A stretch of DNA of 64,000 nt. It comes from Octopus vulgaris. Lineage: Eukaryota. Within the stretch, counting starts at the first letter, position 1. Every line of letters begins with the position of its first letter. The notes beneath the pieces were generated by a model. That model did no database searches. It had not been told where the DNA came from and saw only the letters and a list, made by a program, of their open reading frames with translations. The DNA lies in the NCBI GenBank assembly GCA_951406725.2, contig OX597827.1:26164001-26228000 (forward strand), written 5' to 3'. Shown one piece after another: positions 2,371 through 58,448 of this stretch. The position numbers were made by a program, and so were the translations under genes.

Positions 2371-2407
2371 TGTTTCTGAAGAAGAGCTTTGCTCGAAACG
2401 TACAACA
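2371..2407 (+). ncRNA. Minimal hammerhead motif in a ~190-bp microsatellite-embedded element (about 2325-2510)
   Basis: UGUUU-CUGAAGA-A-GAGC-UUU-GCUC-GAAAC-GUA-CAACA, with one stem I mismatch. Confidence 0.65.
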
Positions 2408-3486
2408 CCCTTTCTTTCCTCCCTTGAGCGTCTTTTAATATTTTGCATGTACCATGTCCTCACCTTGTTGTCATTCCTTGTAATTTGTTTCTTCATTTCT
2501 TTCTAATAATTATATATACATATGTATATATACACACATACATACATATATATATATATATATATATATATATGTGTGTGTGTGTGTGTGTGTGCGTGTA
2601 TGTATGTATGTATGTATGTATGCATGCATGTATATATATATATATATATATATATATATGCATGTATGTATGTATATGCAAAAGAGAGTTTGGTACAGGA
2701 CGATAAACAGACCAATACTGAGGTTGATGGAGAGAGGTAGAAGAGCGGAGAGAAAGGGAGAGACAGAGAGACAGAGAGACAGAGAGAGACAGAGAGAGAC
2801 AGTGAGACACAGAGAGAGACAGAGACTGAGACAGGAAGACAAACAGAGACAGACATTTGTATACTTGTGTGTTTGGATACAAGACGGAAACGGTAGGGCA
2901 TAATAGAGCAAGATAGACAACACGAAGGAGCGAGAAAGGGAGAGAGAGAGAGAAAAGAAGAGAGGGAGAAAGGGAGAGAATGCATTTGTGTTTGTGAGAC
3001 AGAGCTTGAATGAGAAAATGTTTGAAGAATGTCGCCTTTAACATTGAGGGTAGTGAGAAACTTTTGATTTTTCGCTTACTTAACTTGTAGTAAGAAAAGC
3101 CTCATAAACAATATAATAGAATCGACTTCTATTCTTGTAGATGTCAAAGTTATTTTGGTCGGAATTATTTCCTTTTACGCTTTTAGAATATTTCAATATT
3201 GTCTTGCAAATTTGCTTATAAAAACAATGCAGCTAAAAATCTCCTCTTTTGTTATATAACTTGTAGTTTTTGTAGTGGCTCTGGTTGTTGTTGTTGATGT
3301 TGTTGAAGTGTTTGTTGTTGTTACTGATGGTGATGGTGGCGATGGATGTGGCGGTAGTATTGATGGTGTTAGTGGTGAAGGTGATGGTTGCAGTGACGGT
3401 GACTGCTGCTTTGCTTAAACCCACAAGTCAACTCCAGCAGCCATTATCCTTCCTTTATTCGAGGCAATAAGAAACCATATATAAAG

Positions 3487-4262
3487 CAGTGAGCTGGCAG
3501 AAAGGTTAGCACGCCGGGCAAAATGCTCAGCGGTATTTCGTCTGCCGTTACGTTCTGAGTTCAAATTCAGCCGAAGTCGACTTTGCCTTTCATCCTTTCG
3601 GGGTCGATTAAATAAGTACCAGTTACGCACGGGTCGATATAATTGACTTGATCCGTTTATCTGTCATTGTTTGTCCTCTCTGTGTTTAGCCCCTTGTGGG
3701 TAATAAAGAAATAGGTATTTCGTCTGCCATTACGTTCTGGGTTTAAATTCCGCCGAGGCCGACTTTGCTTTTCATCCTTTCAGGGTCGATAAAATAAGTA
3801 ACAGTTACGCATCGGGGTCGATATAATCTACTTAATCCGTTTGTCTGTCCTTCTTTGTCCTCTCAGTGTTTAGCTCCTTGTGGGTAGTAAAGAAATTGGT
3901 ATTTCGCCTGTCGCTAAGTTCTGATTTCAAATTCCACCGAGGCTGACTTTGCCTTTCATCCTTTCTGGAGTGATGAAATAAGAACCAGTTGAGTATAGGG
4001 GTTCATGTAATCGACATAATTATTGCCTGTACCAAAATTTGAAACCGTTATTATCATGATCATCAATGCGAGCTAGCAAAATCGTTAGCACGTTCTACAA
4101 AATACTCAGCGGCATTTTATCCGTCTTTACAATATGAATTGAAAGTCCGCCGAAGACATCTTTTCGAGATCGATAATACAACTACCAGTTGAGCACTGGG
4201 GTCGATGTAATTGACTTAACCTCTCCTACGAAGTTGGTATCGTTGTGCCAAAAACTTTGGAA
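3487..4262 (+). mobile_element. tRNA-derived SINE family N (Nin/Deu-like core), tandem bodies plus an adjacent degenerate copy
   Basis: GAGCTGGCAGAA..GTTAGCACGCCGGG..GAGTTCAAATTC-CGCCGAGGTCGACTTTGCCTTTCATCCTTTCGGGGTCGAT, repeated 3-4 times. Confidence 0.85.
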
Positions 4263-4649
4263 GTAATATGAAAGCAAACAAATCGAATGAATGCTTTTAT
4301 TGATTTTGCCATTTAATAAGCTGCTGTGATTTGAAGTTCGAGTGGTAAATATTTCCGTCAGCCAGTTCGATCCCCTCATTCGCTGGCTAGTTCGACTAGC
4401 TACATTCGTTGTCTAGATGTTGTTGTTGCTGTTGTTGTGGCAGTAGTCATAATGGTAACAGTGATGGTGCAGTGTTCAGTCCTTGTTCAAACCTAATTGA
4501 TCACACAAAGATGACAACTATTCCAGCCATGGCCATCCCCTTATCACTATATTCTTGAATACTTTCTCTAAAGTGTCCTTCATCAAGAGAAAAGGACAGC
4601 TCCCATGATATTGGCGTTTCTTACCAAACTGGTAGATTTCTGAAATCAG

Positions 4650-4915
4650 ACATGGAAAATGAAAAACGTGAAGATAGTTCTAATTATTGTTGGATCTTTG
4701 GGGACAGTATCAGAAGGCATGAAGAGAAACATAAGGGAAATCGGAATAAAGCGCCCAGTAGAAATATTACCAAAGGTTTGACTCAGTGGCACGGCTAGAA
4801 TAATCAGCAAAGTATTAGCTGAAAAGAACGAATAGCATGGTACCATAGGCTGCAGGTAGCAAGCTCACTAGGCATGCAAGAGTCCAGGAGTTACAACAAA
4901 ACTTGAGATAAAAAG
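4650..4915 (+). mobile_element. Degenerate 3' end of an R4/Dong-like LINE
   Basis: Translates to WKMKNVKIVLIIVGSLGTVS..LPKV*LSGTARIISKVL, the typical RLE C-terminal pattern. Confidence 0.55.
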
Positions 4916-55765: not shown

Positions 55766-55886
55766 ATTATTATTATTATTATTATTATTATTATTATTAT
55801 TATTATTATTATTATTATTAATATTATTATTGTTATTATTATTATTATTATTATTATTATTATTATTATTATTATTATTATTATTA

Positions 55887-58120
55887 TATGTTTGACTTTT
55901 GCTTTATATTTGTACAAGTTGGCTCCAAGTCTCACCCGGAGACCTCAAGAGACAACAGGTTGGAAGTTCACGTTGTTGTTATGCCTAGTGTGCCATATAT
56001 TTGGTTGTTTTTTGTGTTGTACTAGTGGATTTCTAAAATAAATAAATAAATAAATAAATGAATATATATATATAATAAAAAAAAATGTTTGTTTTAAACC
56101 TTGAGATTACATAGAAAGTATTTTGGTAGGATATGAGCAGTTCCCATGAGCACTATCTTTTGAATTTCTGCCATTTTGGGGTTTCGTAGTGTCTGATTTA
56201 AGTAGCGATCGCCCCTTTTGCTATCATTCCCAGGGCACCTATGACAACAGGTATTGTTTTAGTCTTCAGGTTCCACATTTTGCTGATATCTATTTCAAGA
56301 TCTTTATATTTGCTCAGTTTTTGGTAGGTCTTGACAGATACGTTTATATCGATTGGGACAGTCATATCAATGAGGAGGCATGTTCTTTGTTTGAAGTCTT
56401 TCAATATGATGTCTGGCCTATTCGCATCTATCTTTCTGTCAGTTTGAATGGTGAAGTTCAAGAGAAGTGAGCTGTGTTCATTTTCAAGCACTGGAGGTGG
56501 ATTGTGTTCCCACCAGTTTTTTTCATGGGGCAAATCCAGGTTTTTGCAGATTACCCAGTGAATATATTGTGCAGCTCTATCATGCCTGTTGAGATAATCT
56601 GTAGGCGCTAGAAGACTGTACTTGGAGACCACATAATCAATGGTTTCATTTTGTCGCTAGCATACACGACACGTTGGATTACTGCCGATTTTTAATATGT
56701 TGGCCTGGTAGTTTCTTGTTGTTAGGCATTGATCTTGAGCTGCTATGATAAACCACTCTGTTTCAGATTTTAAGCCAGAGGTCATTAGCCATTGATGGGT
56801 CAGGGCTCTGTCAACATCTGCATTATTCGCTCTCTTTGGGTATTTGCCATAGAGAGGTTTTTCTTGCCATTTATCTTTCAGAATATCTAAGGCCGCAGAT
56901 TTAGCAGGGGTTTTCATGCGCTTATCTTTTTCTGTGCTTGTTTCTTGTATGTCTAATTCCGAAATTTGTTGTATTCGGAATTCACTTAGATATTCCGTTG
57001 CCTGTTTTGTTACTGAGTATGATGCTTTCTTGTTTTCATCTTTTGAGACGAATTTTAACATCCAATTCTCAGAGTTTTTCAGGTAGGTGTCTAGGCCAAT
57101 TGTAGCAATCTTCATTGTCCACGGCCTCCCTCTTTTCTTTGCAGATAAAGTCGTTCTATATCTGCCTTAGGGTGGTGCATTCTATGCATTGTCAAGAGTT
57201 TTCGTATTTTTCTGTCAAGATTACATATTTCAGTAATACACCAGTTAACGATATTGAAACGTAAGTCACGGCTGGTATGGCTAATGCATTGATCGCTTCG
57301 ATCCTGTTTCTCCCATTCAGCTCTGTCTTGAGTATTGCTCTTACTCTGCGATAACATTCTCTCCTGACCCTTTCCTTCATCTCTGAAAGCCTTATTCCGT
57401 CTCCTTCAATTACCCCTAGATACTTGTAGTTCTCCGCTGGGTCTAATTCTTTTATGACATTCTGCTGGTCAAGGTTAACGTTAGTGGTTTCTGTCCTTTT
57501 TCCTTTGATAAAGGTAGCTTTTGCACACTTATCGAGGCCAAATTGCATTCTGATGTCATCACTGAATTGTTTGACAATCGCTAGTAAGCCCTTGAATTGT
57601 TGGTCATTTTTTGCAAAGAGCTTTAAATCATCCATGCAAATGAAATGATTTATATATCTATCGAACATTTTATATCCGTACTGTGCGTCATTGAGCAGTT
57701 TTGAGAGAGGTATTAAGGCTAAACAGAAGAGGAGTGGTGATAGTGAGTCACTCTGGAAAGTGCCACATGAAATTTTTACATCACCAGCATTTAGAGATTC
57801 ATTGTCACTGTTCAAAGTTAGTGTGGTTTTCCATGATCTCAAACTTACTGACAAAAGGTTTCGCAGAGTAGGTGCTATTTTATACATTTCTAGGCATTTC
57901 TTAATCCAGCTATGTGGTAGGCTATCAAAAGCCTTTTTATAGACTATCCAGGTAATTGATAAGTTTTTGTGTCGTTTGCGACAATCTTCTAAGCTCATCT
58001 TATTGATGAGTACTTGATCATTACAACCGTACGATCCACGTTTACATCCTTTCTGTTCATTACGGAATATGCTGCTGTCTGTCAAAAAACTATAGGTATA
58101 TTCCGTCAGGACTGATGTTA
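55887..58120 (-). mobile_element. Dong/R4-clade non-LTR retrotransposon, family A copy 3
   Basis: ORF 57192..58085 is RT (KAFDSLPH, QSDSLSPLLFCLAL, CMDDLKLF). ORFs 56657..57115 and 56198..56632 carry RHD and RPDII. Same 3' UTR. Flanked by (TAA)n and mixed (TAA/CAA)n. Confidence 0.93.
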
Positions 58121-58256
58121 TTGTTATTTTATTATTATTATTATTGTTGTTGTTGTTGTTGTTATTATTGTTGTTATTATTGTTGTTATTATTATTATTA
58201 TTGTTGTTGTTGTTGTTGTTGTTATTGTTGTTGTTGTTGTTGTTATTATTATTATT

Positions 58257-58448
58257 CAGGTCACTCCCTGGAATCGAAATATAATAATAATAGTAATAAT
58301 AACAACATTGAAAAATACTTTAAGAATGAGAACCCAGGTTCGAAATTTCCCCAAGACACCTGAAGAAGGCTGAATGGTATATCAGCCGAAACGTTGTGTT
58401 AACAACAAACAAGGTGAGGACAAATATCCGTCAGTTGTAAATAATGTT
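58257..58448 (+). mobile_element. Hammerhead SINE copy 3: tail on +, preceded by an inverted piece of the head
   Basis: TCAGGTCACTCCCTGGAATCGAA (head end, minus orientation), then AAT repeats and the shared tail. Confidence 0.7.
58355..58400 (+). ncRNA. Minimal type-I hammerhead ribozyme motif (intact core)
   Basis: GACAC-CUGAAGA-A-GGCUGA(8 nt)UCAGCC-GAAAC-GUU-GUGUU. Stem I is 5 bp, stem II is 6 bp, stem III is the palindrome ACGU. Confidence 0.72.

Follow-up and report, generated by a model that had tools for sequence, protein, structure and literature searches.

The hammerhead ribozyme motifs in a stretch of 64,000 nucleotides of the Octopus vulgaris genome (assembly GCA_951406725.2, contig OX597827.1, positions 26,164,001 to 26,228,000 of the forward strand), referred to here as the window, are genuine and not chance matches. 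An original prediction, made from the sequence alone, had placed nine motifs there (at ten coordinates, one motif being split), and these and one further motif were all assigned to six repeat families, which we call A, A2, B, C, D and E. The window copies of A, B and C are very probably short truncated pseudo-long terminal repeat (pLTR) ends of coding Penelope-like elements (PLEs) elsewhere in the genome, with D a 357-nt non-coding tandem unit likely to borrow the same enzymes, and A2 and E likely to be PLE ends too. The prediction had favoured mainly separate non-autonomous elements, and this does not hold for A, B and C, which are continuous with autonomous PLE genes; D alone looks truly non-coding.

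Each of the nine motifs was present at, or about 10-80 nt from, the position first given for it, and each lies in a repeat family found across the genome (2.8 Gb in 227 contigs). The window has 35% G+C and is rich in microsatellites, and chance matches in such AT-rich DNA are an explanation to which we give practically no weight. A hammerhead descriptor that is family-agnostic, and was tuned post hoc with the sites already known, was compared with 100 local dinucleotide shuffles. The predicted excess over shuffled sequence was found at each setting: 13 hits when one core mismatch was allowed (mean in shuffles 3.2, maximum 7), 4 sites with perfect core and stem II (mean 0.16, maximum 2) and 5 hits with at least 4 pairs in stem I (mean 0.3, maximum 2), none of these counts being reached in any of the 100 shuffles. 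An earlier, stricter descriptor gave one perfect-core site in the window and none in 25 shuffles. Chance is favoured by 8 of the 13 relaxed hits, which lie outside the predicted sites and were placed in no family, and also by Rfam, the check that had been proposed: no hammerhead is among the 150 best of 443 window matches, which are dominated by TA-repeat microRNA noise, nor among the 5 matches, weak and unrelated, on a clean family B copy. However the family data refute chance, as the stems differ between families and there are thousands of copies. The exact core pattern of family A, which does not split subfamilies, has 4,756 matches in the genome and that of family B has 4,101, with 0 for the reversed control in both cases. 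Exact A and B sites together are expected about 0.2 times per 64 kb and 2 are present in the window, so the genome total cannot be extrapolated from it.

The motifs are minimal type-I hammerheads of the Penelope and retrozyme type, for which at least five families had been claimed and six were found. The core, CUGANGA and GAAA with stem II, is present in families A, B, C and E. It is departed from in A2, which has U at core position 6 (A6U) in every one of 13 copies from elsewhere in the genome, and in the window copies at 8074 and 51519. Stem III is palindromic throughout, with 4 nt in A, A2 and B and 8 nt in C, D and E, and stem I has 5 bp in B, C and D, 3-4 weak bp in A and about 2 bp in E, as compared with the 4-5 bp of minimal hammerhead ribozymes (min-HHRs). 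Stem II begins with G-C in all families but D, which has C-A, the remaining pairs varying by family, and there is a bulge after A9 in A, A2 and B. The G-C start of stem II, the A9 bulge and the palindromic stem III are min-HHR features of PMC4209133 (this and the other papers are cited here for the accessible parts of their text). It had been proposed that the families are unrelated and have different stems; the stems do differ among families, but A and A2 have stem II in common. Core and pairing had likewise been thought to be kept, and they are intact at 58360 (B) and 29075 (C), but the other sites have core or stem defects, and most of the window hammerhead copies are predicted from their sequences to be inactive. 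The palindromic stem III predicts self-cleavage only as dimers or with protein help, and the family C dimer, alone among the families, co-folds into a double hammerhead. A separate observation is that the core variant U4C occurs in two unrelated families, in 13 of 67 A copies and in about 13-17% of B reads at that place.

As had been predicted, no Penelope open reading frame (ORF) lies in the window, where tblastn with 9 PLE protein pieces was negative, and the parents of A, B and C were found at other loci. A collinear upstream ORF with reverse transcriptase (RT) and, at the C-terminus, an endonuclease (EN) of GIY-YIG type, as in EN+ PLEs, is present for A, B and C. Of the partial tandems, inverted arms and tails that mark PLEs, there is a tandem in A and there are inverted arms and tails in B and C.

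In the case of family A, 12 loci were picked for a long 5' extension, and 6 of them have the endonuclease end, recognised by motif and alignment, some 1.1-1.4 kb upstream in the same orientation; one locus (L283) is a pLTR-ORF-pLTR tandem of the family. The window copies are a truncated pLTR end at 2325-2510 (+), with its core at 2376-2402, the first stem I pair mismatched and an approximate right end running into (TA)n, and a degenerate copy at 27223-27370 (+), right end also approximate, in which the core (27259-27285) is accompanied by a stem I of 3 bp and stem II is weakened. Of 30 copies (loci L021-L050), 26 have their 5' end in the interval 57-98 nt upstream of the core. There is no tRNA head in this family, and the clustering possibly reflects a site in the pLTR where transcription starts. 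The sister family A2 has a copy at 51406-51549 (-), with the core at 51492-51519, which carries A6U, G12A and a broken stem II and is predicted inactive. A short A2-like remnant at 53107-53143 (+), missed in the prediction, lies in TA-rich DNA and has a fortuitous-looking stem I of 6-7 bp; its motif at 53113 probably belongs to A2.

A PLE beside a family A copy at locus L051 was considered as the parent of A and rejected, as in 30 loci it has its own 3' untranslated region (UTR) without family A. It is a young, high-copy element of Neptune type, with 18,119 first-look candidates and open frames of up to 869 aa. Its 3' UTR (L051:3620-3670; L052-L081; L155:368, 4354) includes an atypical hammerhead-like motif, read by eye, with a core of U3-A8 type preceded by an extra U, a 2-bp stem II, a 6-nt palindromic stem III and a 6-bp stem I.

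Family C is linked to its parent by locus L294, where RT, GIY-YIG (Pfam E 1e-4) and the 3' UTR lead to the family C ribozyme in one orientation. Its window representative, 28962-29315 (-), consists of a copy at 28962-29152 and an inverted, 5'-truncated arm with a longer tail at 29151-29315; the hammerhead (28995-29080) has core and stems intact at site 29075. We had considered this copy as a miniature inverted-repeat transposable element with a terminal inverted repeat, and rejected that reading since other copies show variable inverted arms plus a tail. There were 1,161 first-look candidates for C and 1,905 for D, of which 40 were scored for each, the best matches being 92-98% identical.

For family B the continuity with coding sequence is seen in many copies. 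Locus L147 shows, in each arm of an inverted pair, the order RT thumb and GIY-YIG end, tRNA-like head, (AAT)n, ribozyme and tail, and among the 30 best copies 25 have the tRNA-like head after the GIY-YIG end and 18 have the hammerhead after it. Locus L302 is a near-full-length family B element, and the reading frame has its ATG upstream of the ribozyme, from where it passes through the tail into the ORF. The endonuclease was recognised by motif and alignment, not by Pfam. Where the ORF end meets the head (L147:2395-2425) the sequence forms a hairpin of about 12 bp, almost perfectly paired, as though the master copy had arisen by fold-back.

The window has three B copies. The 3' part and tail of the first are at 7958-8149 (-), with the hammerhead at about 8035-8079, which at 8074(-) has two core substitutions and a shortened stem I, and its tRNA-like head with A and B boxes is at 10081-10175 (-). 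The two parts are separated by a passenger in the internal (AAT)n, a 5'-truncated long interspersed nuclear element (LINE) at 8207-10069 (-) with RT, zinc finger and restriction-like endonuclease. The second copy, 16915-17947 (+), has a head remnant (16915-16967), (AAT)n, a Dong-type fragment (about 17227-17800) and the 3' part (17793-17947), with its hammerhead at 17860-17905 and U4C at the 17865 core. The third, 58235-58445 (+), has an intact hammerhead at 58355-58400 and a short inverted arm at 58235-58278, in the (AAT)n of which is a Dong-type LINE at 55887-58120 (-). All three thus have a LINE of this type in the internal (AAT)n, oriented as the host arm. From their motifs we take the window LINEs to be of Dong/R4 type, and further fragments of this type are at 22088-24478 and 54772-55664. 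Dong is reported to target (TAA)n (PMC7998251). These LINEs were considered as parents of B and rejected, as in all three copies they entered the internal (AAT)n afterwards.

The prediction that the elements favour microsatellites stands for three families. Of the A copies, 21 of 23 and 26 of 28 have a TA/CA repeat after the 3' end, as do 16 of 27 C copies and 12 of 20 D copies, where 7-11% is the background; for B the count is only 8 of 62, the (AAT)n being internal to the B element.

Family D differs from the others. Its window copy, 35611-35888 (-), is part of a 357-nt non-coding, partial-tandem unit of retrozyme type, with the hammerhead (site 35821) at 35784-35826 and its stem II broken. 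A period of 356-358 nt was present in 6 of 20 loci, with no ORF and two alternative 3' ends, and D is as expected of a retrozyme of the non-LTR kind (LTR, long terminal repeat), a non-coding tandem unit of 150-400 nt with a type-I hammerhead. It would be possible to extend this, in the spirit of the original prediction, to all families as independent non-autonomous retrozymes that spread via self-cleaved circular RNAs. The period and lack of an ORF in D, in the size range of non-LTR retrozymes (PMC7229834), are in favour of this, but two ribozymes in tandem were found in 0 of 20 D loci, a best-match sample, and the collinearity of A, B and C with coding PLEs already contradicts it for those three, so that we regard it as improbable. 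One D copy (locus L122) adjoins a PLE RT fragment, probably via insertion.

In family E the hammerhead is split, as predicted: the 5' half is at 46635-46720 (-), with core and stem II strand at 46649-46661, and the 3' half and tail are at 44927-45052 (-), the hammerhead part being 45023-45046 and the tail ending at (TA)n. Loop II is occupied by a 1.57-kb non-coding repeat, 45051-46619 (+), with TC start, CTAG end, an A/T site and no target site duplication, which from these features we take to be Helitron-like. The E pattern has 4 exact matches in the genome, 3 of them family E and uninterrupted versions among them, and the split hammerhead is real but accidental. A hammerhead variant at L159:1500, whose stem II starts as in family E but which has another loop, stem I and 8-nt stem III, is maybe a seventh family.

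The truncated PLE ends that we propose would arise as follows. By analogy with the Anolis element PAc (PMC11167929), PLE protein would nick AT-rich DNA, and reverse transcription would start inside the RNA, just downstream of the ribozyme and near the ORF start. Copying would usually end after 200-300 nt, often with an inverted second arm and a one-sided tail, and thousands of solo ribozyme-bearing stubs would thus accumulate and then decay. Inverted arms and one-sided tails are seen in B, C, D and E and match the PLE layout of bioRxiv 10.1101/2021.04.23.441226. The PAc ribozyme needs protein, and is dispensable for insertion in vitro (PMC11167929).

Several results, together with those from Rfam given above, weigh against the origin from PLEs. 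Pfam gave no hit on the endonuclease piece of the A parent or on the RT piece of the C parent, and a continuous RT-EN-ribozyme unit was present in only 1 of 8 extended C loci, with part of it in locus L293. No parent ORF was found for A2, though no search was aimed at it, and no collinear upstream PLE ORF was found in the 1.5-kb flanks of 20 D or 4 E-pattern loci, save for one probable chance junction. For A, B and D, neither the monomer nor the dimer has the active form as its minimum-energy fold. In three RNA-seq runs, all from one study of a species that is probably related and each covered to about 6%, read ends show no pile-up at the predicted hammerhead cut. Lastly, the clade names do not come from an RT tree: we take the A parent to be of Neptune type and the B parent of Poseidon type by linker motif (Cys-rich between RT and EN in A; bioRxiv 10.1101/2021.04.23.441226).

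The tRNA-like head of family B raises the question of its promoter. RNA polymerase III (Pol III) could drive B from this head, in which case the short copies, which run from head to tail, would be a unit resembling a short interspersed nuclear element (SINE) but mobilised by Penelope, and the coding element in its entirety would be transcribed from that promoter too. We think this possible but rather unlikely, and put use of Pol III in any form by family B no higher. Less probable again is the full version, in which the B parent would be an autonomous Penelope/Poseidon-type element transcribed by Pol III, with a captured tRNA-derived promoter in the pLTR before the ORF, TTTT purged from the 2.6-kb coding strand, and a SINE-like short RNA copied in thousands by Penelope enzymes.

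The head has 1,827 exact matches in the genome. It matches the A box from 8 nt after its 5' end, the B box is matched in 17 of 30 copies, and ARAGORN at relaxed settings calls the window head tRNA-Ser, but default ARAGORN and Rfam call no tRNA in it. In loci anchored on the head, 23 of 30 break at most 7 nt upstream of it and 7 continue into the ORF, 3 of the 7 being one duplicated locus. Such breaks would suit a Pol III start, but the native hairpin just before the head could stop or fold back the cDNA without one (8 of 30 junctions were classed as fold-back), and the 5' ends of family A cluster likewise (26/30, 57-98 nt from the core) with no tRNA head.

The second line of evidence is termination. 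The sense strand of a 2.63-kb B parent copy has 0 T4 runs as against 32 A4 runs, and 27 B copies have only 5 T4 runs in all, each private to one copy. In a post hoc test the absence has P = 0.027 against dinucleotide shuffles and P = 0.018-0.022 under synonymous resampling, while T3 runs are at the expected level (19 against 20). Five control ORF sets have 2-11 T4 runs (P at least 0.24), and include a Poseidon-type relative from a metagenome scan that gave no tRNA call. A head with A and B boxes before an ORF, and no TTTT in 2.63 kb, together suggest Pol III transcription. However the T4 result concerns one master lineage, with the first 458 nt covered by one copy, and is not significant by dinucleotide shuffle for four shorter B copies alone (P 0.26-0.62). 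In the RNA-seq runs, which are uninformative on small Pol III RNAs, B reads are strand-balanced passengers with no pile-up of starts, about 85% of them continuing into unlike sequence. Translation of an uncapped RNA would also lack explanation. With regard to classification, the short B copies resemble a tRNA-derived SINE in having A and B boxes at the 5' end, but the tail is PLE-derived and not LINE-derived, and they are not independent of a coding element, as the head is part of one (25/30).

Compared with published systems, what we describe is mostly known biology in a new host, octopus, and the pattern is the one described by Cervera & de la Peña 2014 (PMC4209133), who report numerous min-HHR families in a single genome, for the most part as solo motifs linked to PLEs that have been truncated. 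The octopus families resemble them in having several families per genome with thousands of mostly solo copies and core variants, opposite-strand pairs 100-700 bp apart, the A9 bulge, G10.1-C11.1 and the palindromic stem III. They differ in the host, in A6U throughout A2, in C-A at the base of stem II in D and in the long loop II of C. The prediction had conceded that its novelty would be lost if all families were already annotated as PLE pLTR fragments, and we take the continuity of A, B and C with autonomous PLE genes to have this effect for those three.

Family B is like PAc, the Poseidon element of Anolis carolinensis (PMC11167929), in that the ribozyme overlaps the ORF start, the tail has an internal RT start and the targets are AT-rich; it is unlike PAc in that its ORF is preceded by a tRNA-like head and (AAT)n and its sense strand is T4-free. 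It also recalls the SINE-like hammerhead repeats of Schistosoma, which have a Pol III-type promoter and then a hammerhead (PMC6765202), but those are non-coding tandem repeats whereas the B head is an integral part of a coding PLE's pLTR. Animal non-LTR retrozymes are defined in PMC7229834, and bioRxiv 10.64898/2026.07.22.740005 derives retrozymes from pLTRs, with octopus and tRNA unmentioned in its accessible text. Family D is like them in its non-coding unit of about 357 nt, partial tandems and PLE-type ends, but none of its 20 loci had the two-ribozyme tandem, and A, B and C, as ends of coding elements, are unlike retrozymes. The O. vulgaris repeat annotation of PMC13282606 has 31 recently active PLE families, and the word ribozyme is absent from its main text, though the supplements may include the present families. 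The accessible parts of PMC10886601, PMC4758252 and PMC13343379 held nothing bearing on the octopus ribozyme question. A search that left out most subscription papers gave no paper on hammerheads in octopus, on SINEs mobilised by Penelope or on PLEs transcribed by Pol III.

The window also has other repeats. At 3481-4253 and 61659-62667 there are tandem 184-220-nt copies of an abundant SINE-like repeat, many dispersed copies of which are elsewhere in the window, and at 14678-15328 and 53522-53929 there are transposase-like fragments, without a Pfam hit, which from their motifs we take to be of Tc1/mariner type.

The analysis links three ribozyme families (A, B and C) to parent genes, extends a known pattern to an octopus genome, and provides matched young elements for probing the role of hammerheads in PLEs. 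If family B should prove to be driven by Pol III, it would be a protein-coding retrotransposon using a class of promoter believed to be for short non-coding RNAs, and its short copies would be a SINE-like unit mobilised by Penelope rather than LINE enzymes.

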